Part shown: positions 1 to 9,852 of the stretch, one piece after another
Layout of the letters: every line of letters starts with the position of its first letter
How positions within the stretch are numbered: the stretch's first letter is position 1
NCBI GenBank assembly: GCA_012034075.1
Contig: JAAURD010000160.1
Location: 1 to 10,105 of the forward strand
DNA length: 10,105 bases
Direction: 5' to 3'
DNA from: Chloroflexaceae bacterium
Lineage (GTDB): Bacteria > Chloroflexota > Chloroflexia > Chloroflexales > Chloroflexaceae
Made by a program: the position numbers and the translations under genes
Notes under the pieces: model-generated
What the model was told of the DNA's origin: nothing
What the model saw: only the letters and a program-made list of their open reading frames with translations
Databases searched by the model: none

Positions 1-229
1 GCGCAATTGCTGCCGCCGCAAGGATGCCACCGGCAAAGAGGGCAACACCGATAAAATAGATGCCAAAGGCAATACCGGTAAGCCAGCCAAACCCTCGACG
101 GTCTTTGGGAATAGCGACCGGTACGAGCGAACCCTCTTCGCCGCTGCGCATCACCTGGCGAATGTTTTGCCAGGTGGCAACGACCTCTTTAATTTTGGAG
201 AAATCGGCTTTGGTTGCAGGTAGGGTCAT
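1..229 (-). CDS. hypothetical small membrane protein, 3' partial (continues beyond window start)
   Basis: The minus-strand ATG at 229..227 overlaps the TGA stop (228..226) of the upstream SPFH gene as ATGA, which suggests translational coupling. The frame stays open to position 1. It translates MTLPATKADFSKIKEVVATWQNIRQVMRSGEEGSLVPVAIPKDRRGFGWLTGIAFGIYFIGVALFAGGILAAAAIA..., ending in a clear hydrophobic transmembrane stretch. It is missing from the ORF track only because it has no stop inside the window. Confidence 0.45.
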   Translation of the reverse strand, partial: MTLPATKADFSKIKEVVATWQNIRQVMRSGEEGSLVPVAIPKDRRGFGWLTGIAFGIYFIGVALFAGGILAAAAIA

Positions 230-1752
230 AATACAGTCTCCTCCACTTTTTCGGCCAGCGCGAGTTTTTCCTCTTCCACCAGCTTGTTAATCTGGGCCGA
301 ACGTTCCTTGATCCGCGCCGTAACCTCGTTGCTGCGTTCACGTATGGTACGCATATCTTCGTTGGTAAACAGGCTGCTCTCCTGAAGCCCGAGCATCTGG
401 CGCGCAATCTGCATAAAGTCAATTTGCTGTTCGCTCTCTGGGCCGATATGCACCACGCTGGGCAGATTGCCGCTGATATTGTGCATTTTGTTGAGTATCT
501 CTTGCTGGAAGCGGTATTCCAGAATTTCGGGGTAGTACGCTGCACTCAGGGCGCGAATATCGAGTGCCTGCGCTTCCAGCATCGCAGCATTGGCCTTCGA
601 TTCGCTCTCGGCTTCGATCATCAGCTGACGGGCATATGCATTGGCGCGATTGAACTCTTTTTCGCGGGCAGTATCGATCTGGGCCTGATAGCGGGCAATC
701 TCAGCGCGTATCTCCGATTGGGTCTCTTGCAGCGATGCCAGTTCGCGGTTAAAGTCGCCCTCGTCCTGCTCTTTGCGCAGTTTGAGTTCATACTCGTAGG
801 TGTAGGCCTCTTTGGCCACACGGACCATTTCCGGAGCAGCCAGGTCCATGCGGTACTGCTGGCTGGAAGGCTCGGCATGGGTGATGTTGGCATTGACAAA
901 ACGCACCGCGGGCAAAAATTGCTTGTTCAGCGTATCGAGCAAGGTCTGGGTGCTTTCGCCGACTAGATCATAAATCGCTTCGGCCTTTTGCTCGTAGATC
1001 AAGGCACGGGTCACCTCGCTGATCGCGTTTTCGAGCTTTTCGGCAAACCCCTGGGCGCCGCCAAGGGTGAAGATAAACTCGGCCGGGTTTTCTACCCGAA
1101 ACTGCAAGAAGAGATCAACCGAGGCATTCACGCGACCTTCGGTGGGAGCTTCACGAATAGGTGCGTTGTACGGATACTCTTTGGTGATATTGACAATATA
1201 GCTCACTTTGCGCCACGGGCTGAAGAGCGTCGTCCGCCCGGCATCAACGACCTCTTCTAATTTGCCAAATCGTGTGATGAGCGCCTGACAGCCGTCAGGG
1301 ACCATGATGTAGCTGTTTTTCCAGATATTGAAACCAATATAGCCAACCAGTAAAATCCAGTAATGGATACCAAAAAGAACATTGGCAATATTACTATCGA
1401 TAAATATATCGAGGACGGCATCGAGTGTACCGGCTGCAAACCAGCCCGCAATACCAAAGCCAGCCAGCAGAAAAACGCCCACCAGCCAGCCCATCGGACG
1501 GCTATGTTTGGGCACAACCACCGGCGATATCACATTGGTATATTGTCCCGAGGGCTCATGGCGGGGAAAACTGCGGTTGAGCACTTCGGCTGCTTCGGTC
1601 AGTGATACCGACATCTGGGCAATTTGCGTAACCGCCGATTTTTCCTGTTCACGGGCCGAGAGAAAATCCTCGGCATCAATGCGAAATTGCTCAAACTCTT
1701 CGCTCTGGGCAACTTCACCAATGGCTGAGGCAATTCGTTTGAACTGTTGCAT
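226..1752 (-). CDS. SPFH/band-7 (stomatin/prohibitin/flotillin/HflKC) domain membrane protein, flotillin-like
   Basis: The 524-aa ORF 226..1800 has a roughly 100-aa cytoplasmic N-terminus followed by two hydrophobic segments (GWLVGVFLLAGFGIAGWFAAG, VLFGIHYWILLVGYIGF). An SPFH core follows (YIMVPDGCQALITRFGKL...TLFSPWRKVSYIVNITKE...VDLFLQFRV), then a long Ala/Glu/Gln-rich coiled coil typical of flotillins. The preferred start is ATG 1752..1750 (MQQFKR...), which is preceded by AAGGGAG at a good Shine-Dalgarno spacing. ATG 1800 is the alternative. Confidence 0.85.
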   Translation of the reverse strand: MQQFKRIASAIGEVAQSEEFEQFRIDAEDFLSAREQEKSAVTQIAQMSVSLTEAAEVLNRSFPRHEPSGQYTNVISPVVVPKHSRPMGWLVGVFLLAGFGIAGWFAAGTLDAVLDIFIDSNIANVLFGIHYWILLVGYIGFNIWKNSYIMVPDGCQALITRFGKLEEVVDAGRTTLFSPWRKVSYIVNITKEYPYNAPIREAPTEGRVNASVDLFLQFRVENPAEFIFTLGGAQGFAEKLENAISEVTRALIYEQKAEAIYDLVGESTQTLLDTLNKQFLPAVRFVNANITHAEPSSQQYRMDLAAPEMVRVAKEAYTYEYELKLRKEQDEGDFNRELASLQETQSEIRAEIARYQAQIDTAREKEFNRANAYARQLMIEAESESKANAAMLEAQALDIRALSAAYYPEILEYRFQQEILNKMHNISGNLPSVVHIGPESEQQIDFMQIARQMLGLQESSLFTNEDMRTIRERSNEVTARIKERSAQINKLVEEEKLALAEKVEETVL

Positions 1753-1828
1753 GATCGTCGCTCCCTTGTTCGTCAACTCTTTGGATTGTATCCAGACCAT
1801 ACGTTTCAGTCATCATCGTTCTTGCACT

Positions 1829-1952: not shown

Positions 1953-1971
1953 TGTTGCAGTAGGTGCAACA
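1953..1971. promoter_or_regulatory. perfect inverted repeat TGTTGCA-gtagg-TGCAACA, candidate operator for the downstream HTH/WYL regulators
   Basis: A 7-bp perfect palindrome with a 5-bp spacer sits in the divergent intergenic region. The half-site TGTTGCA/TTGCAA recurs at about 1989, 2019 (overlapping the ATG of the small HTH ORF), 2186, 2251 and 2282 (TGTTGCT). A -10-like TATACT lies at 1981..1986 immediately downstream. Confidence 0.4.
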
Positions 1972-2025
1972 TCGCCCCGCTATACTGGTTGCAAGAAAAG
2001 CGCATACAACAATGGAGGTGTTGCA

Positions 2026-2241
<216 letters not shown>

Positions 2242-2349
2242 TCTCTGGCTGTTGCAGAACATGCATGGTTTTGTGGAAAAGTGTTGCTATTTGTCACGAC
2301 ATCGTATGCTATGCTGGATATGCATGGGATAACAGGAAGGATGACAACG

Positions 2350-3405
2350 ATGACTCTCAATAAAGCTATCATCAAATCGGAGGGACTGGACCAACTGAAG
2401 CGCTACTTGCTCACGGGGCGCAAGACCCGCAGTGAGCTTCAGGATTTGCTCGGTATTGACCGTACTACGTTGTGGCGCTGGATTCGTTCGCTTGAGCGGA
2501 ATGAATATGCTATTGATACAGATGAGCAGGGACGGTTGTTTATAGATCGCAATACGTACCTGACCTCGCTTAAACTCTCTGCGCAGGAGAGCGTGTTGTT
2601 GATGCTGGCTTTGCGGCTCTTCCAGCAGTATAACGATAAGCCACAGCATGCGGCGGTGGAGATGCTGCATAAGCTGGGCACGCAGCTGATGCATGGGGTT
2701 GCTACGGTGGTTGGCCCGCATGTGATTGCGCTGGCTGAGGCGCAACGGGCGGGTCTGAGCCAGCAGCGCACCGATGCGGATCGACGGATGGAGGCGATTG
2801 GGACTGCCTGGCTTACCAGTCGCAAGCTGCGCATCTTCTATCGTCCCTTACACGCCCATCGCCCATTTGAAGAGGTCTTTCATCCGTATATGCTTGAGCC
2901 TTCGGCGATTGGCCGCAGCACCTATATGATTGGCTATTCGGAGCTGGTTGATGGGTTACGGGTGCGTAAAGTTGAACGGCTGCAACGCACACCTATTGTT
3001 GAAGATGACACATTTGAGATAGCAAAAGACTTTGATATCCATCGGCTGCTTTCGGGGGCATGGGGCATCTGGTTTGATGCCGATGAGCAACCGACCACAG
3101 TGACCCTGCGCTTCTCTACCTATGTGGTGCAGCGAGTTGAGGAGACCCGCTGGCACCCTACCGAACGCAAGGTGTATGATGCGGAAGGGCGCCTGGTGTG
3201 GACTGCTGAGATTGATACGGTAGAAGAGATGCTGCCGTGGATCCGTGGCTGGGGCGCGGATTGCGAGGTGATTGAGCCAGCTGCGATACGTGACCAGATA
3301 ATCGCCAATGTGAAGCGGATGGTACGGCTGTATGGCACACCCATTGGCGCAACACCGACGGATGGCCTTGATCTTGATGTACTCGGTTCACTGTTTGGAG
3401 CATAA
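2350..3405 (+). CDS. WYL-domain transcriptional regulator (wHTH - WYL - WCX architecture; BrxR/CapW/PafBC-like)
   Basis: The listed ORF starts at GTG 2281. The preferred start is ATG 2350, with Shine-Dalgarno AGGAAGG (2334..2340) at 9-nt spacing, and the MTLNK start mirrors MFGNK of the upstream paralog. There is an N-terminal wHTH. A WYL-like core follows: RKLRIFYRPLHAHRPFEEVFHPYMLEPSAIGRSTYMIGYSELVDGLRVRKVERLQ. A C-terminal WCX-like region follows: TVTLRFSTYVVQRVEETRWHPTERKV...LPWIRGWGADCEVIEPAAIRDQI. The stop TAA 3403..3405 lies 2 nt before the next gene's ATG. Confidence 0.85.
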   Translation: MTLNKAIIKSEGLDQLKRYLLTGRKTRSELQDLLGIDRTTLWRWIRSLERNEYAIDTDEQGRLFIDRNTYLTSLKLSAQESVLLMLALRLFQQYNDKPQHAAVEMLHKLGTQLMHGVATVVGPHVIALAEAQRAGLSQQRTDADRRMEAIGTAWLTSRKLRIFYRPLHAHRPFEEVFHPYMLEPSAIGRSTYMIGYSELVDGLRVRKVERLQRTPIVEDDTFEIAKDFDIHRLLSGAWGIWFDADEQPTTVTLRFSTYVVQRVEETRWHPTERKVYDAEGRLVWTAEIDTVEEMLPWIRGWGADCEVIEPAAIRDQIIANVKRMVRLYGTPIGATPTDGLDLDVLGSLFGA

Positions 3406-3407
3406 CG

Positions 3408-5960
3408 ATGATACACAAACCGTTTGATCTGCGCCCATTTCAAGAACGTGTTTTTGCGACATTGATGGCCGGGCAGAGCGTTATCTTGCAGGCGCCCACG
3501 GGGGCGGGCAAAACTCGTGCGGCGCTGGCGCCCTTTTTGCAAAACCTGGCCCATATGGGTGATCGGCTACCGCTGACCTGCCGCTATGCGGTGCCGCTGC
3601 GTGTGTTGGCACGTCAGTTTTTTGCTGAATATCATCTTTATGGGGAATGGATTGATGCGAAGATGAATACGCGGCTGTGTGAGACATACAAGCAGTTTGG
3701 GCAGGAACCGGTGCGGATCCAGATTGGCGAGCAGGCCGATGATCCGCATTTTGAGGCAGCGCTCACCTTTTGTACGATTGACCAGTTGCTTGCCAGTGCT
3801 TTGGGCGTGCCTTATAGCGCTGGGGGGCGGCGAGCAAACCTTAATGTGGGGGCGATTGTGGGCAGCTATCTGGTGTTTGATGAGTTTCATCTCTTCCCAT
3901 ACGAGCAGGGCAGTGGCGCACGTCTGACGACGCTGCAACTGTTGCGGATGACGCGGCTGCGAGCGACCTATCCGTTGGTGCCGTTTGTGCTGATGACGGC
4001 GACGTTTTCGACGACGCTGTTGGAGCAGTTGGCGACGCTGCTGGATGCGCAGGTGATCAGCCCGCTGCCAGAGGTTGATCCGCTGGCGGGCACAGATGAA
4101 CTGGATGCGCTTAATGCTGGGCGTGAGCGCTCTTTCTTTCTTCATGAGACGCCGCTTTCGGCGCAGGCGGTGCTGGCAGCGCATACGGATAGCTCGCTGG
4201 TGGTGTGCAATACCGTGCGGCGTAGCCAGCAGATGTACCAGCAATTGCGTGAGCAGCTCGAGCAGGAGGGGCGGCCAACGCGGCTGTTGCTGTTGCATAG
4301 TCGCTTTACGCCGGATGACCGCGGATGGTTGCAGGAACAGCTGGAAGCAGATTTGAACAAGGCAGCCTGGCAGCGCGAGCGCCAGCGTGATGTGATTGTG
4401 GTAGGCACGCAGGTTATGGAAGTGGGCTTAGATATTTCGGCGAGCCGGTTACACAGCGAGATAGCGCCGGCGAGTAGTCTGATTCAGCGGGCGGGGCGTT
4501 GTGCGCGGTTTGCCCAACAGCGGGGCGAGGTGCATGTGTACCCGCTTGATGCTGAAACGAGAACTCTACCCTATAAAACTGACCTCTGTGAGGTGACTTT
4601 GCAGGCCTTGGCGGAGTATGACGGGCGGCATGTTGGTTTTCGTGAGGAGCAGGGTCTGATTGACGCGGTGCATACCACAGAGGATAGCGCGATGCTGGAG
4701 CAGTTGGGACGCACCGACCAGGAGATAAAAGAGCGCGTGGTTGCTGGCTGGAGTGCTGATTCGGAGCAGATTGGGAAGATTCGCTCGCAGCTGATTCGGG
4801 ATGTGCAGCAGGTGTCGATTATTATTCACGATGATCCGAAGAGTGCGATCACGGAGCGGCCCTGGCAGTGGGAGAGCTTTGGCTTGTCGCCCTATTTGCT
4901 GACTGGGGCGTGGGATGCGCTGGATGACTACTGGGGAGAACATGGCAATGGCGAGGCATGGTGTCTGAAGCCGGTGGCGTTTGAGAGCGCTGATGAAGCC
5001 GGTGAGCGGATGCAGGTGCGGTATGCATGGGAGTCCGTTGCTCAAGCAGAAGTATCATCCACACCGATGATTGCGCTACCATCGGCGCTGGCGACGTATG
5101 ACTCGCCGAAGACGGGCGGGGGGTTGGGCTTTCTGCTGCGTGATGGCGGCCTGGAGCTGAGCAATTGGCCGGCTTACACGAGCAAGCCGCGTGGCAGTGA
5201 TCAGCGCCAACGGAGCAACCGGGGCTATGAGCAGGAGAGCTATACCGATCATATTAGTGGGCTGTTACGGGCATATCAGCGCTCACTGCTGCAACAGCAA
5301 CTGGCTTACCCGGCGCGGGTGTTGGAGGCGGTGCTGGGTTTGCCGGCTGGCAGCATCGATCAGGCGATACGACTGGCGATTGCGTGCCACGATATTGGCA
5401 AGCTGGGCACGAAATGGCAAGGCTGGTGTGAGGCGTGGCAAACGCTGCTGGCCGAACAGCGGGGGCAGCTGTATGCGGCTCAGCCGGGCAAACGGCCCTT
5501 TGCGCATACCGATTTTGATGGTTCGACGGAGATGTATCAGTTGCAGCGCATGGTTAAGTCGTCTCGTCCCAACCATGCCTGTGAGAGCGCGGCACTGGCA
5601 GCGTACTTTGTTGAGGAGACGTTGATTGCGGCTGCAGATGACAATAAAGCCACTGCAATGCTGGCATGTGCGACGGTTGCGGCGATTGCGCGGCACCATG
5701 CTGCTACATCGTCGAAGTATGGTCCTATCACATTGGTTGCTGGTGCGGTTGATGTTATCCGTGAGAATCTGGAGCTGGTGCGTCAAGGGCAGTCCTGGAG
5801 CTATGATTTGGCCCATATGGATGTAAAGTTGCATGAAGATGGATACTTAGCGGAAGACCGTATGACATTACCTACGGAAGTGAATGTACAGGAGACTCTG
5901 TTGTATTTTGTGCTGGTGCGGGTGCTGCGTCTGGCGGATCAGCGCTCGTTTGATTTTTAA
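3408..5960 (+). CDS. cas3: Cas3-like SF2 DExH helicase with C-terminal HD nuclease domain (type I-G/I-U-like domain order), orphan
   Basis: ATG 3408 is preceded by GGAG (3397..3400) at 7-nt spacing. The helicase motifs are the Q-motif RPFQERV, motif I QAPTGAGKT (aa 28-36), motif II VFDEFHLF (aa 156-163, DEFH as in Cas3), motif III MTATFS, motif IV LLLLHSRF, motif V VVGTQVMEVGLDIS, and motif VI LIQRAGRCARF (aa 358-368). The C-terminal HD-superfamily ladder is H615 (DHISG), H661-D662 (IACHDIGKLG, nt about 5388..5393), H700 (AHTDFDG), H723 (NHACESAA), and H763-H764 (ARHHAAT). No other cas genes or array are in the window. Confidence 0.85.
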   Translation: MIHKPFDLRPFQERVFATLMAGQSVILQAPTGAGKTRAALAPFLQNLAHMGDRLPLTCRYAVPLRVLARQFFAEYHLYGEWIDAKMNTRLCETYKQFGQEPVRIQIGEQADDPHFEAALTFCTIDQLLASALGVPYSAGGRRANLNVGAIVGSYLVFDEFHLFPYEQGSGARLTTLQLLRMTRLRATYPLVPFVLMTATFSTTLLEQLATLLDAQVISPLPEVDPLAGTDELDALNAGRERSFFLHETPLSAQAVLAAHTDSSLVVCNTVRRSQQMYQQLREQLEQEGRPTRLLLLHSRFTPDDRGWLQEQLEADLNKAAWQRERQRDVIVVGTQVMEVGLDISASRLHSEIAPASSLIQRAGRCARFAQQRGEVHVYPLDAETRTLPYKTDLCEVTLQALAEYDGRHVGFREEQGLIDAVHTTEDSAMLEQLGRTDQEIKERVVAGWSADSEQIGKIRSQLIRDVQQVSIIIHDDPKSAITERPWQWESFGLSPYLLTGAWDALDDYWGEHGNGEAWCLKPVAFESADEAGERMQVRYAWESVAQAEVSSTPMIALPSALATYDSPKTGGGLGFLLRDGGLELSNWPAYTSKPRGSDQRQRSNRGYEQESYTDHISGLLRAYQRSLLQQQLAYPARVLEAVLGLPAGSIDQAIRLAIACHDIGKLGTKWQGWCEAWQTLLAEQRGQLYAAQPGKRPFAHTDFDGSTEMYQLQRMVKSSRPNHACESAALAAYFVEETLIAAADDNKATAMLACATVAAIARHHAATSSKYGPITLVAGAVDVIRENLELVRQGQSWSYDLAHMDVKLHEDGYLAEDRMTLPTEVNVQETLLYFVLVRVLRLADQRSFDF

Positions 5961-5976
5961 ATGGGGGGGTGTGAGC

Positions 5977-6067
5977 GCGGTCGTCCCGACCGCAACCCCT
6001 CACCCCGACCCCTCTCCCACAAGGGGAGAGGGGAGCAGTACGCTCGGGTCAGGGTGCTTTTTTTATT
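5977..6067 (+). terminator. GC-rich double hairpin plus T-run at a convergent gene junction (candidate terminator for the cas3-like gene)
   Basis: Hairpin 1 is GCGGTCG-tcc-CGACCGC (5977..5993). Hairpin 2 has a 10-bp stem CCCCTCTCCC (6009..6018) pairing GGGAGAGGGG (6024..6033) around a 5-nt loop. The run cTTTTTTTaTT follows at 6058..6067. The T-run lies about 25 nt after the second hairpin, so this is not a textbook intrinsic terminator. The minus-strand GrpE-like gene stops at 6076. Confidence 0.4.
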
Positions 6068-6075
6068 CTGCTCAT

Positions 6076-7068
6076 TTACGACTGGTGCGATGCAGCCATG
6101 GTGGTTACTGCTACTTCGGCGTGGCGCAACACCTGGTTGCCCACCATGTAACCACGGCGCAGTTCGCTGGCTACTATCCCGGCCCGATCATCTTCGGCAA
6201 CGGGAACAACATCCATGGCAATATGGATATTCGGGTCAAATGGCTGGCCCTGGGCTTCAATCGGGTAGACCTGATCGGCGGTGAGGAGGCTCAGCAGGCG
6301 CTCTTGCATAAAGGTGACGCCAACCAGCCAGGATTGCAACGATTGGCGCAACCCACTCGCGTGCTCATACAGCGCAACGGCGGATGGGTCTGGCTCAGAC
6401 GATGCAGGCTGGGGTGTGGATCGGTGGAGCAAGCGCTCGAACAAGGAGGGATCAGACGATGCAGGCTGCTTGTTCGGTAGCGTTGGGTCGGGGGGGAGCG
6501 GTTGGTCGAGCAACTGCTGACCGGCGCGGATCGCTTCATCCATGCTATCAAGCACGGGCAAGAGCGAACGAATCAGATCGAGACGTGCCTGTGTGCGGAT
6601 GTTTTCCTGCTGTTTGCGCAGAGCTGCCATTTCTTCATTGCGGCGCTGGTCTGTCGCACGGAGTTGTTCCAACGCCTGGGTCAGCTGTTCCTGCTGGGTT
6701 TCGGTGAGGGTATTGGCTTTCAGTTGCTCACGACCGGAGCGACCAATCTGCTTTTCCAGTGCGGTGAGCACGCGTTGCAGCCCTTCTACCTGTTCGCTAT
6801 TGTTGGTACTGATAGTGGCGGGCAAGCGCTCGACATGGGCAGACAGATGGTTGAGCTGATCGGCAAGGGTTGTTTGCATGGTGTGCAACTGTCGGGTTAC
6901 CTGGGTCAGTTGGGTATCGAGCTGGTGCAACTGGGTCTGGGTATGCTCTAGACGGGGACGACTGGTGGCGGTCGTTGGCAGCAGGCGGACTATGAGCCGC
7001 CGCAGATGGGCCGACCAGCCCGACTCGTTTTTGGTGGGTTGCTCGTACTGGTAAGATGGATTGGTCAC
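6076..7068 (-). CDS. grpE: GrpE-family nucleotide exchange factor, atypical (long N-terminal coiled coil, Pro-rich insertion)
   Basis: The C-terminal half carries the GrpE signature blocks LLPVLDSMDEAI, GQPFDPNIHIAMDVVPV, and RRGYMVGNQVLRHAEVAV (compare E. coli LLPVIDSLDRAL / PLDPNVHQAIAMV / QKGYTLNGRTIRAAMVTV). The N-terminal roughly 150 aa is Q/T/L-rich coiled coil. A roughly 60-aa Pro/Ser-rich insert (QPLPPDPTLPNKQPASSDPS...PQPASSEPDPS) sits between the first two blocks. The start is a GTG at 7068..7066 overlapping the TGA of the upstream J-domain gene (GTGA), so the start is uncertain. Confidence 0.75.
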   Translation of the reverse strand: MTNPSYQYEQPTKNESGWSAHLRRLIVRLLPTTATSRPRLEHTQTQLHQLDTQLTQVTRQLHTMQTTLADQLNHLSAHVERLPATISTNNSEQVEGLQRVLTALEKQIGRSGREQLKANTLTETQQEQLTQALEQLRATDQRRNEEMAALRKQQENIRTQARLDLIRSLLPVLDSMDEAIRAGQQLLDQPLPPDPTLPNKQPASSDPSLFERLLHRSTPQPASSEPDPSAVALYEHASGLRQSLQSWLVGVTFMQERLLSLLTADQVYPIEAQGQPFDPNIHIAMDVVPVAEDDRAGIVASELRRGYMVGNQVLRHAEVAVTTMAASHQS

Positions 7069-7412
7069 AGGGTTACCTTCTGATACTGCTCACGCCAATC
7101 GGTGCGACACAGGTCGCTCATGACACGGGCTACGGTCAGAACATCTTCGGTATGGAGGGTGAGATCAAAGTCGGCCTGACGTTGTTTGCGTGATGGCGCG
7201 GACCATTCGTTGAGCAGGAGCATATCGGTTTCGATGCGCTTTTCGGGGTCACGCAGCGATTCGTAGGCGGCACGAATGCGTTTAAACATGGCCGGATCAC
7301 GTTCGGGCGGGTGCGCCTTGACCTGGGCAAAGTAGGCTTGCTTGATCTCGGCCAGGGTTGCACTCTGTGGTATGTCCAATACGGTATAGGGATTGTTATA
7401 GGTTGATTTCAT
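7065..7412 (-). CDS. small J-domain (DnaJ-like) protein with non-canonical HPP in place of HPD
   Basis: The 115-aa product begins NPYTVLDIPQSATLAEIKQAYFAQVKAHPPERDPAMFKRIRAAYESLRD, which has J-domain helix II/III topology. The invariant His-Pro-Asp position reads His-Pro-Pro (cac ccg ccc on the minus strand, equal to plus 7305..7313 gggcgggtg). It has no Gly/Phe region, zinc finger or C-terminal domains. The stop overlaps the GrpE-like start. Confidence 0.7.
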   Translation of the reverse strand: MKSTYNNPYTVLDIPQSATLAEIKQAYFAQVKAHPPERDPAMFKRIRAAYESLRDPEKRIETDMLLLNEWSAPSRKQRQADFDLTLHTEDVLTVARVMSDLCRTDWREQYQKVTL

Positions 7413-7476
7413 AGAACACCATGGTTGATGATTGTGAACAGTCTATGTGTATTAGGAAACTGGTTGTCTGATTGGG

Positions 7477-9775
7477 TTACAACACATCAGGATCAAGATC
7501 AAAATCGGGATCAAAATCAAAATCGGGATTATCCATATATATCCTCATAAATGGACTATTAATCTGTCGCCGCATCTGTTGCGCCTGCCGCACCAAGTTC
7601 TCATTGCCCTGATTTTTCGCCAGATGTTCGGCGCGTTGCAAGGTCTTTTGGGCGTTATCTGTTTGCCTATTTATGCCTTGCAGCAAGCCGAGCAGAATAA
7701 GCAGACTGGGGTCATCCGGTGCTTTTTCAACGGCTTTTTCGGCATATTCCAGGGCCAGGTCAGGTCTCACCTCCGACAGGTAAGCGGCGATCAGGCGATA
7801 CCCGTTGGGACTCTCTGGATCAGACTCGACGGCCTTATTGAGCAGGGTATGGGCCAGCGTGATCCATTCTTTGCGTTCGTGATCTTTCGCTTTGCCAGTG
7901 GTGAATGGGCGCAGATAACTGATGACACCACCATGAGATCGATCTGGGTGTTGGTATTGGTTAAAGATGGTTGTTGCGATATCTGCATAAAAGCTGATGT
8001 CGATCTCGATGGCTGCCTCGGCTCGTTCGAGTAGTTGCACCAGTTCGTTGCATTGATTGGCAACAATCCAGCATTGCATGGCCATCAGATAGGCTTCCGT
8101 TTGGTCGGGAGCAAGGGCCAGGGCTTCATCGATATGGGTGGTGACGACGTTGAACTGGTTTTGTTCGACGGCCACACGGGCAAGGTGGATCGCAAAGCGA
8201 TAGTCTTGGGGTGCAATTTTGCGGCCATCTTCATAGGTTTTTATTGCTTTTTGATACTGCCCAAACTGTTGGAGCGTGCTGCCATGGTACAAGAACGCGC
8301 TGGCAATGCGCTGGCGGACTTGCTCATTGGCTGGTTGCTGTTGGGCCAGCCGTTCGAGTGCGCCCTGGGCCGCACCAATTTGGTGGCGTTCGTGGTATAG
8401 CTCAATGGCCATGATATTGGCATCGATATGATTCGGATCGATCTCTAACACACGATGGATTTCATTCAAGCCTGCCTGATATTGATCATTGGCGATCAAT
8501 GCCTCGGCCAATTGCATCCGTGTTTCGGTGTCTTCGGGGCTTTTCTTGATCATTTGACGAAAGATCGTGACGGCTTCATCGGGACGATCGGCGCGTTTAT
8601 AGCATGTCACAATTCGTTTGCGTACCCAGGCCCATTTTGCATCCTCGGTATCGTCCTGGTCTTTTGCACGTGGGTTTTTGCGTGGGCGAGTACGCAGGAG
8701 CGCACGCCATGCTTCGGCAGCATGCAACCAGCTTTCGAGGTGTTCATAGGCAATCGCCAGGTTTTGCACGATGACACGGGGTGAACCCATTTTGCTGCTA
8801 TTGGCGACTTTCTGGCGGGCCTGTTCCCAGCACAGAACTGCTTTGCGCCAGTCGCCTTTTTTGGGCCAGATCGTGGGCTACGGTATCAAACACCGTGACG
8901 AGCAGTTCATTGAGGGGGGCATAGTCGATCTCGGCGGCCGCCCAGGCGGTGGCCTGGGCGGCGACTACGTCGTTGGCTTCCATTTGGGCGGTAAGCTGTT
9001 GGATAAACACCAGCGCCAGATTCTGGCTTAACCAGTTCGTCCGGATGTGGCCGGCTTTCTGTACCTGCTGCCAGCATTCAAAGGCGGTCTGATGATCGCC
9101 CTGCTGAGCAGCAGCGACGCCACGGTAGTACATGCGGATGGTTTCGATATCTTTGGAGGGTAACCGGCTTTCGTCAGAGAGCACTTCAAGCGCACGCTGG
9201 TCAGCCTGCTGGATCAGACTGAGACCGAAAAGGAGCCGATCCAGAGCGGATGCCTGATGACTGGTGTTTTCGGGGATGGGTTGCTGTTGGAGCAGGGCCT
9301 GCAATGGCGCGAGAACACTGGCAGTCTGGCGATACGTTTGAGCGAGGGCACTGATATCGGCATTGGCATCTTGCTCCAGCAGGGCCAGGGCCAGCACCCA
9401 CGATACACCATCCCAGGATGGTTCCAGGTCAAGCACCTTGCGATACAAGGTGATGGCTGTGTCGAGCTGATCCATGTGATGATAGGTCAGGCCCAGGTGG
9501 TAATGATAGCGGAGGTCTGCTGGTTTGCGCTCCAGTGCCTGTTGCAGATCGACGATTGCTTCTTCGTGGTCTGGTCGTTGCAACGCACGCCGAAAGTAGG
9601 CTTCAGCCAGAGCCGTCTGTAGGGCCGCGGTCGATGGTGTCACCGACTCCCAGGAGCGAATAGCCTGGCTAAATTGCCCGGCATTAAAGGCGTACAGACC
9701 CCGTTTCACCATATCTGGTGGTTTTTTCTGAGTCTGACCGGTTTTTTTCTTATTCTTATTTTTAGAAGATGCCAT
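7477..9775 (-). CDS. large TPR-repeat protein, apparently a single gene split into two ORFs (9775..8798 and 8790..7477) by a +1 frameshift at an A6 homopolymer
   Basis: Both ORFs are TPR-like throughout. The frame of the downstream ORF stays open upstream of its ATG to 8877 and there encodes TPR-like text (KGDWRKAVLCWEQARQKVANSSKMGSP...). Removing one A from the A6 run (plus-strand T6 at 8857..8862) joins the ORFs as ...VFDTVAHDLAQK|GDWRKAVLCWEQARQ..., giving one protein of about 765 aa. The preferred start is ATG 9775 (MASSKNKNKKK...), because the listed 9790 is a TTG. The C-terminus is acidic: DNPDFDFDPDFDLDPDVL. Confidence 0.6.
7488..7530 (-). repeat. short tandem hexanucleotide repeat (gatcaa/aatcaa/aatcggg units) encoding the acidic C-terminal DFDFDPDFDLDPD tail of the TPR protein
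   Basis: The plus strand reads caggatcaagatcaaaatcgggatcaaaatcaaaatcgggatt with a visible period of 6 to 12 nt. Confidence 0.5.
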
Positions 9776-9852
9776 ACGAACAGGAACCAACGCACTATTC
9801 GTATGAATAGCGCATTGACGCTAAAACGTTGCCCTATAGAAAACTCTAGCCG

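Follow-up and report, generated by a model that had tools for sequence, protein, structure and literature searches.

Among CRISPR-Cas systems of type I, a helicase domain followed by an HD nuclease domain is a distinctive order of the subtype I-G Cas3, which serves a streamlined complex of four subunits; in subtype I-A, the helicase and the HD nuclease are encoded by separate genes (PMC10482374). WYL domains associated with Cas3, and even fused to it, were described for some type I systems in 2014 (PMC4012209), and the type I-D locus of Synechocystis is reported to be under negative control by the WYL-type protein Sll7009 (PMC10212523). Here we describe a WYL regulator gene abutting cas3 on a contig of a Chloroflexaceae metagenome-assembled genome (MAG; GenBank assembly GCA_012034075.1, contig JAAURD010000160.1). 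The contig was analysed over its entire length of 10,105 bp, which is termed the window, and everything reported for this locus refers to those base pairs. The association of WYL proteins with Cas3 is already documented; the window presents an unusual and probably truncated context for it. In relatives, the two genes stand at the start of a full type I locus, and for this reason a lost or separated partner is the preferred explanation: we give about an even chance to the reading that positions 1953–5960, with the regulatory genes and cas3, are the head of such a locus of the Chloroflexota, and that a recent deletion or rearrangement beside a REP-like hairpin has separated this head from the Cascade, the adaptation genes and the array.

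Organization of the locus in related genomes

The cas3 gene starts 2 nt past the stop codon of the WYL gene, and translational coupling of the two is therefore likely. The open reading frame (ORF) map agrees in this respect with the initial annotation, which had listed a WYL-WCX regulator and, after 2 nt, a Cas3 of 850 aa. The Cas3 protein is 100% identical to its database copy, annotated as Cas3' by NCBI, and has many full-length homologues. Six homologues whose contigs were looked up, including the three closest at 64–65% identity, served as reference set. All six are encoded in the order small helix-turn-helix (HTH) gene (68–72 aa), WYL gene and cas3, followed by a cas8 gene for a large subunit of about 600–640 aa; this holds for each of the three nearest relatives. 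Where the contigs reach beyond cas8, a DevR-type cas7, cas5 and cas6 follow, and then cas1, cas2 and cas4. In the loci L001, L003 and L006, CRISPR arrays with a 37-nt repeat and a period of about 73 bp come next. Several reference loci contain an additional ORF of 91 aa between cas3 and cas8; it is conserved and without a family match, and might encode a small Cascade subunit.

The Cascade genes and the CRISPR array that accompany cas3 in the clade were not found in the window. Hidden Markov models (HMMs) built from the related operons gave zero matches in it for Cas8, Cas7, Cas5, Cas6, Cas1, Cas2 and Cas4, no tandem or spaced repeats were detected, and the CRISPR repeat core of the clade (CGGCTC-NN-GGTTGAGCACTGRAA) had no copy even at three mismatches. 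The earlier statement that the 10 kb hold neither these cas genes nor an array is upheld by these searches. The window was likewise without a match to Rfam families.

A survey of species-representative genomes yielded 80 further loci, mostly from Chloroflexota; the MAG of the window was not among them. All loci were scored with HMMs from the reference operons. The region downstream of cas3 was regarded as informative if it extended for at least 2 kb, as in 67 loci including the window and 66 without it. The gene directly after cas3 is cas8 in 61 of these 66 relatives (61 of 67 with the window), and the gene directly upstream encodes a WYL protein in 70 of 76 informative loci. All five relatives in which cas8 does not directly follow cas3 lie within CRISPR islands of type I-D or type III. 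In L078, the cas3 unit has a type I-D operon on one side and a type III-D operon on the other. In L061 and L087, the gene that follows cas3 encodes a Csx3-domain protein, and in L061 a Cmr (type III-B) operon comes after it. In L074, cas3 and cas8 are 8 kb apart, and the gap contains at least one gene of type III (Cas10/Cmr2-like). In L075, cas3 is followed by another WYL gene, a gene for a helicase and one for Csc2 (the type I-D Cas7). The window is the sole locus of the 67 in which non-cas genes follow cas3. The survey hence speaks against the stand-alone module that the initial annotation had seen in the gene pair.

Together with the Cascade-linked L041 and L082, the loci L061, L075, L078 and L087 form one tight Anaerolineae/Anaerolineales clade (73–87% identity). 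Four of its six loci thus maintain an intact HTH-WYL-cas3 unit devoid of its own Cascade, beside genes of type I-D, III-B or III-D systems, and the Cas3 proteins of these four retain every catalytic residue. The recurrence of such intact units suggests a repeated uncoupling, and perhaps a sharing, of Cas3. A perfect sigma-70 promoter (TTGACA-18-TATAAT, 5454–5483) is located between cas3 and the 91-aa ORF of L006. With a promoter of its own, the Cascade block appears to be a transcription unit separate from HTH-WYL-cas3 and hence easy to uncouple from it.

The separate promoter and the Cascade-less units of the Anaerolineae/Anaerolineales clade would also suit a split locus, in which a functional HTH-WYL-cas3 unit serves a Cascade from a different part of the genome, be it the cognate one or one that belongs to a different type I system, with recruitment of Cas3 in trans as already proposed in the initial annotation. 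The intact Cas3 and WYL proteins of the window, under a constraint equal to that of Cascade-linked orthologues, are in line with this proposal. It is at odds with the broken first gene of the unit, the small HTH gene, and among the database homologues of the closest Cas8 none was attributable to a Chloroflexaceae MAG, a negative result that is weak evidence because MAGs are incomplete. On balance, we regard a split locus as unlikely. A further interpretation takes up that the window and four of the six loci of the Anaerolineae/Anaerolineales clade keep every catalytic residue: operator, HTH, WYL and cas3 would constitute a separable module that stays under selection after losing its Cascade, and that serves unrelated effectors such as those of the neighbouring type I-D and type III systems or acts alone as a WYL-gated, DNA-degrading defence. 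We put this forward as a speculation of decidedly low probability.

Several repeats and motifs were recorded in the intergenic regions of the relatives. The spacers downstream of cas3 in L006 (5311–5549), L007 (4376–4611) and L004 (12613–12852) have two conserved motifs in common, an element of some 36 nt, GGCAAGCACTCTAAACCGAGTCGTAGGCCAGCCCAC, and a ACTTTCAGTATCTTA box. The element was considered as a CRISPR-repeat-like sequence and rejected, being by eye unlike the repeat of the clade. Between cas6 and cas1, L001 carries a 21-bp tandem repeat (17760–17955, 9.3 copies, 98% identity) and L006 has tandem repeats of 8/16/24-bp units (10834–10978).

Comparison with subtypes I-G and I-A

In PADLOC searches, the large subunit of the relatives matched Cas8a (1.2e-54) and their Cas5 protein matched Cas5a (5.4e-54); the operons also matched profiles of Cas7 (DevR/Csa2-like), Cas6, Cas1 and Cas4. 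None of the subtype equivalogs of NCBIfam was reached. The relatives therefore carry bona fide type I systems, in which an I-G-like domain order in Cas3 goes together with effector profiles of the I-A kind, and in which Cas5, Cas6, Cas1 and Cas4 are not fused.

The window Cas3 resembles that of subtype I-G in its N-terminal helicase and C-terminal HD domain, and Cas3g was its top match in both NCBIfam and PADLOC. The hint at subtype I-G in the initial annotation was based on the domain order. However, only the helicase half of the protein aligns to Cas3g, and the score against the Cas3g model TIGR02621 was 181.6 with a cut-off of 400. The operons of the relatives differ from I-G as well: they encode a Cas8a-like large subunit, their Cas5, Cas6, Cas1 and Cas4 are separate genes, and the model of the I-G Cas4-Cas1 fusion (NF049935, cas4g_cas1g) scored 176 against a cut-off of 560. 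An assignment to subtype I-G was rejected on the Cas3g score and the operon content of the relatives.

A possible affinity to subtype I-A is suggested by the large subunit and the Cas5 of the relatives, which match CAS-I-A profiles, by their DevR/Csa2-like Cas7, and by the solved chains closest to the window Cas3. These are 7tr8 and 7r2k, both named Cas3 helicase (E about 2e-21), the former presumably a part of a type I-A complex. Four characters set the lineage apart from I-A. Helicase and HD nuclease of the window Cas3 reside on one polypeptide, the Cas7 of the relatives scored 112.4 bits against a cut-off of 212.6 for the I-A Cas7 equivalog, the hosts are bacteria of the Chloroflexota, and the locus starts with an HTH-WYL head instead of the Csa3/CARF regulator usual in I-A.

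With Sll7009 and the WYL-Cas3 fusions, the window shares the presence of a wHTH-WYL protein at a type I locus. It differs from the fusions in that WYL is encoded by a separate gene abutting cas3 and is accompanied by an additional HTH gene of 71 aa. BrxR, CapW and DriD have the same wHTH-WYL-WCX architecture and a position directly upstream of the presumed target genes; in contrast, their similarity to the window WYL protein is weak, and their targets are BREX, CBASS or DNA-damage genes rather than cas3. The literature on orphan cas3 genes yielded only a mis-annotated mycobacterial TatC homologue, which is irrelevant here.

The Cas3 protein

The window Cas3 scored 163.3 bits against cas3_core (TIGR01587, cut-off 102.45) and 100.3 bits against Pfam Cas3-like_C_2 (cut-off 27). 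It consists of a superfamily 2 DEAH-type (DExH) helicase at residues 1 to about 470 and an HD nuclease domain at about 600–850. With the full-length protein, the Cas3_HD model narrowly missed its threshold (22.2 vs 23.1); it passed on the C-terminal 250 residues (601–850; 25.1 bits vs 23.1) and also matched seven of seven orthologous C-terminal segments. A second HD model, TIGR01596, remained below its cut-off (29.9 vs 43.45). The helicase motifs are present as K35/T36 (motif I), D158-E159-F160-H161 (motif II, DEFH) and Q360-RAGR-x-x-R367 (motif VI), and those of the HD domain as H615, H661-D662, H723, H763-H764 and D844. Except for D844 (74 of 79), all these residues are invariant over 79 family members. 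The protein is accordingly a Cas3 with helicase core and HD nuclease domain, as the initial annotation had assigned it; the C-terminal HD domain postulated there retains its metal-binding residues and is not catalytically dead by this measure.

The sequence as a whole is well conserved. The other 27 aligned homologues agree with one another at 136 positions, and the window Cas3 departs from them at one of these; it differs at two of 200 near-invariant positions, which is among the lowest counts in the set. Its similarity to the outgroups is 58%, and that of its nearest relatives is about 55%.

Strong PADLOC matches of the protein were confined to Cas3 profiles (1e-48 to 1e-53). Known helicases of non-CRISPR defence, namely Shango SngC, BREX BrxH and Druantia DruE, were considered and discarded, as the matches to SngC (1.9e-13) and BrxHI (8.1e-12) were far weaker; the window is also without partner genes of Shango-, BREX- or Druantia-type systems. 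Scans with Pfam and NCBIfam disclosed no extra domain in Cas3 able to supply target recognition.

These results bear on the interpretation favoured in the initial annotation, an autonomous WYL-gated Cas3 translocase-nuclease that would act as a defence or DNA-processing module of its own without a crRNA-guided complex. WYL regulators such as BrxR and CapW gate non-CRISPR defence, the proteins and the candidate operator of the window are intact with no Cascade nearby, and intact units lacking a Cascade recur in the Anaerolineae/Anaerolineales clade. On the other hand, the window contig is the only one of the 67 informative loci to lie outside a CRISPR-Cas context. Because of this CRISPR context of the lineages, the linkage of all nearest relatives to Cascade, the restriction of strong matches to Cas3 profiles and the lack of a targeting domain, an autonomous module is very improbable.

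The WYL regulator

The start codon of the WYL gene aligns with the starts of the orthologues of 351 aa. The encoded protein passed the Pfam cut-offs for WCX (63.3 bits, cut-off 23.9) and WYL (25.0 bits, cut-off 21.8), in accordance with its earlier description; HTH models matched below threshold only (HTH_11, 18.1 vs 25). By its domains it is a member of the wHTH-WYL-WCX regulators. Among 69 orthologues, 32 columns are conserved at 90% or more, and the window protein conforms to every one of them. The closest solved chains, 7u02, 7tzv and 8tp8, which we take to be DriD, cover the WYL-WCX part only (E about 1e-4).

CRISPR-associated WYL profiles of PADLOC match the protein at 3e-25. A much stronger match (E = 2.4e-97) was obtained with the first 318 of the 1009 positions of PDLC01766, a profile named 'Cas3c'. 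The N-terminus of this profile is thus a WYL module, and annotation pipelines that rely on it could mislabel a stand-alone WYL regulator as Cas3. The window Cas3 itself matches PDLC01766 weakly (1e-9).

Candidate operator and small HTH gene

Two elements upstream of the WYL gene were overlooked in the initial annotation, a palindrome and a small HTH gene. The two-gene unit described there is in fact a unit of three genes and a candidate operator, with the first gene broken in the window. The palindrome, TGTTGCA-N5-TGCAACA, is followed by a -10-like TATACT (1981–1986). It has one exact match in the window where 0.01 are expected by chance, and 12 related loci (L002–L010, L047, L058 and L075) have a single copy each, on the same strand as the operon. 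It begins 73 bp upstream of the small HTH gene in the window and 68–76 bp upstream of the called start of this gene in the seven loci compared. The half-site TGTTGC recurs in the promoter-like spacer between the HTH and WYL genes. The position and conservation of the palindrome make it a good candidate operator, which may be bound by the WYL protein, the HTH protein or both.

At the position of the small HTH gene, L001–L007 encode intact orthologues of 68–72 aa with HTH_11/DeoR matches. In the window, codon 14 (2065–2067) is an in-frame TAA, aligned at the DNA level with CAA or CAG in L004, L006 and L007. A restart at Met20 (2083) would drop the first helix. The TAA codon could represent genuine decay, a strain variant or an error in the MAG consensus.

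The breakpoint downstream of cas3

The nucleotide homology to L004, L006 and L007 ends exactly at the stop codon of cas3, and the element of about 36 nt found after cas3 in these three loci is absent from the window. The spacer that follows instead folds at -59 kcal/mol (z = -3.6) and contains two hairpins (5977–5993 and 6009–6033), a T-run and a terminator-like site (6041–6056). The second hairpin, of 25 nt with the stem CCCCTCTCCC/GGGAGAGGGG, is similar to repetitive extragenic palindromic (REP) sequences. Another Chloroflexota locus, L084 (8051–8163), carries three hairpins of this type in tandem, spaced by 45 bp, which points to a repeated type of element. As a possible dispersed repeat, the REP-like hairpin may favour rearrangement or cause assemblies to break.

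The latter role would fit a misjoin across the repeated hairpin, by which cas3 would in truth run into a Cascade operon and the grpE-like cluster would belong elsewhere. The Logan contig L088, from an independent assembly (run SRR11470443), is identical to positions 6022–8861 of the window without a mismatch, yet it stops inside the loop of the hairpin; synteny is lost at the hairpin-rich spacer that directly follows the stop codon of cas3, and the tandem copies in L084 attest the repetition of the hairpin type. Since no other assembly extends across the junction of cas3 and grpE, an artefact of this kind has to be weighed. However, the other end of L088 (8861) lies inside the second TPR gene, where no repeat was detected, and the breaks of Logan contigs are therefore not specific to repeats. 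Moreover, the k-mers typically used in assembly are longer than a hairpin of 25 nt, and the spacer may plausibly be a bidirectional terminator common to cas3 and the convergent gene. Taken together, we consider a misjoin unlikely.

An old, pseudogenised remnant was ruled out, as neither Cas3 nor the WYL protein shows decay. Without decay, any loss of the Cascade must be recent, and three readings agree with the data: such a recent loss, a Cascade elsewhere in the genome or a misjoin. Among these, a recent uncoupling is preferred, although several observations weigh against it. Cas3 and the WYL protein evolve without relaxed constraint, Cas3 shows no accelerated divergence and the candidate operator is intact. 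The window retains no cas8, 91-aa ORF or repeat fragment that would prove a deletion, and the search comprised a MAG contig of 10 kb only. Finally, no independent assembly confirms the join of cas3 and grpE: in look-ups of the exact products, the Cas3, WYL and flotillin-like proteins had no second contig, and the GrpE-like protein alone had one, L088.

Flanking genes

The features of the window are compiled in Table 1. The initial annotation had described the flanks as housekeeping-like, with a flotillin gene on the left and a convergent GrpE operon on the right. The positions and families are correct; the GrpE cluster, on the other hand, looks specialised. The GrpE-domain protein is atypical: the domain match leaves about 240 N-terminal residues uncovered, and the score stays far under all GrpE equivalog cut-offs (e.g. 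50.5 vs 184). Its gene lies directly downstream of a J-domain-only gene, with an overlap of 4 nt, and is preceded by two TPR genes on the same strand. The cluster looks like a specialised co-chaperone set and not like a housekeeping grpE-dnaK-dnaJ operon.

Table 1 Coordinates of genes and other features in the window
Feature	Position	Strand	Evidence
SPFH/Band_7 (flotillin-like) protein	226–1800	-	Pfam/NCBIfam scan
Candidate operator palindrome	1953–1971	+	Conserved in relatives
Small HTH gene, 71 codons, nonsense codon inside	2026–2241	+	Orthologues in L001–L007
wHTH-WYL-WCX regulator, 351 aa	2350–3405	+	Pfam WCX and WYL
Cas3, 850 aa, helicase and C-terminal HD nuclease	3408–5960	+	cas3_core, Cas3_HD
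Synteny breakpoint and structured spacer, 115 bp, between convergent cas3 and grpE-like gene	5961–6075	.	Alignment, folding
GrpE-domain protein, 330 aa	6076–7068	-	Pfam/NCBIfam scan
J-domain protein, 115 aa	7065–7412	-	Pfam/NCBIfam scan
TPR protein 1	7477–8790	-	Pfam/NCBIfam scan
TPR protein 2	8798–9790	-	Pfam/NCBIfam scan

Proposed function and implications

In the proposed arrangement, operator and promoter, small HTH gene, WYL regulator and cas3 would form the head transcription unit. In the relatives, this head precedes a block, apparently with a promoter of its own, of the 91-aa ORF, cas8 (Cas8a-like), cas7, cas5 and cas6, and then cas1, cas2, cas4 and the array. In the window, everything beyond the stop codon of cas3 is missing, most probably through a recent deletion or rearrangement, with the REP-like hairpin and the convergent grpE-like cluster in its place. 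We infer that the palindrome overlapping the promoter is a binding site of the WYL protein, perhaps jointly with the small HTH protein, and that a ligand would thereby gate the transcription of WYL and cas3, whose translation would be coupled. The loading of Cas3 on DNA would depend on the R-loop of a Cascade; in a cell devoid of the cognate Cascade, Cas3 would have no targeting function.

The locus is mainly a cautionary case: where a cas3 gene looks orphaned on a short MAG contig, truncation of the locus, a split locus or a misjoin offers the best explanation. At the same time, its analysis defines the regulatory head, composed of palindrome, small HTH gene, WYL gene and cas3, of a widespread and experimentally uncharacterised type I variant of the Chloroflexota. 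This head appears to be a separate transcription unit and is uncoupled from the Cascade genes in several related loci, and it offers a testable candidate operator for a CRISPR-associated WYL regulator. If the copies lacking a Cascade are functional, they would bear on the sharing of Cas3 between CRISPR systems.

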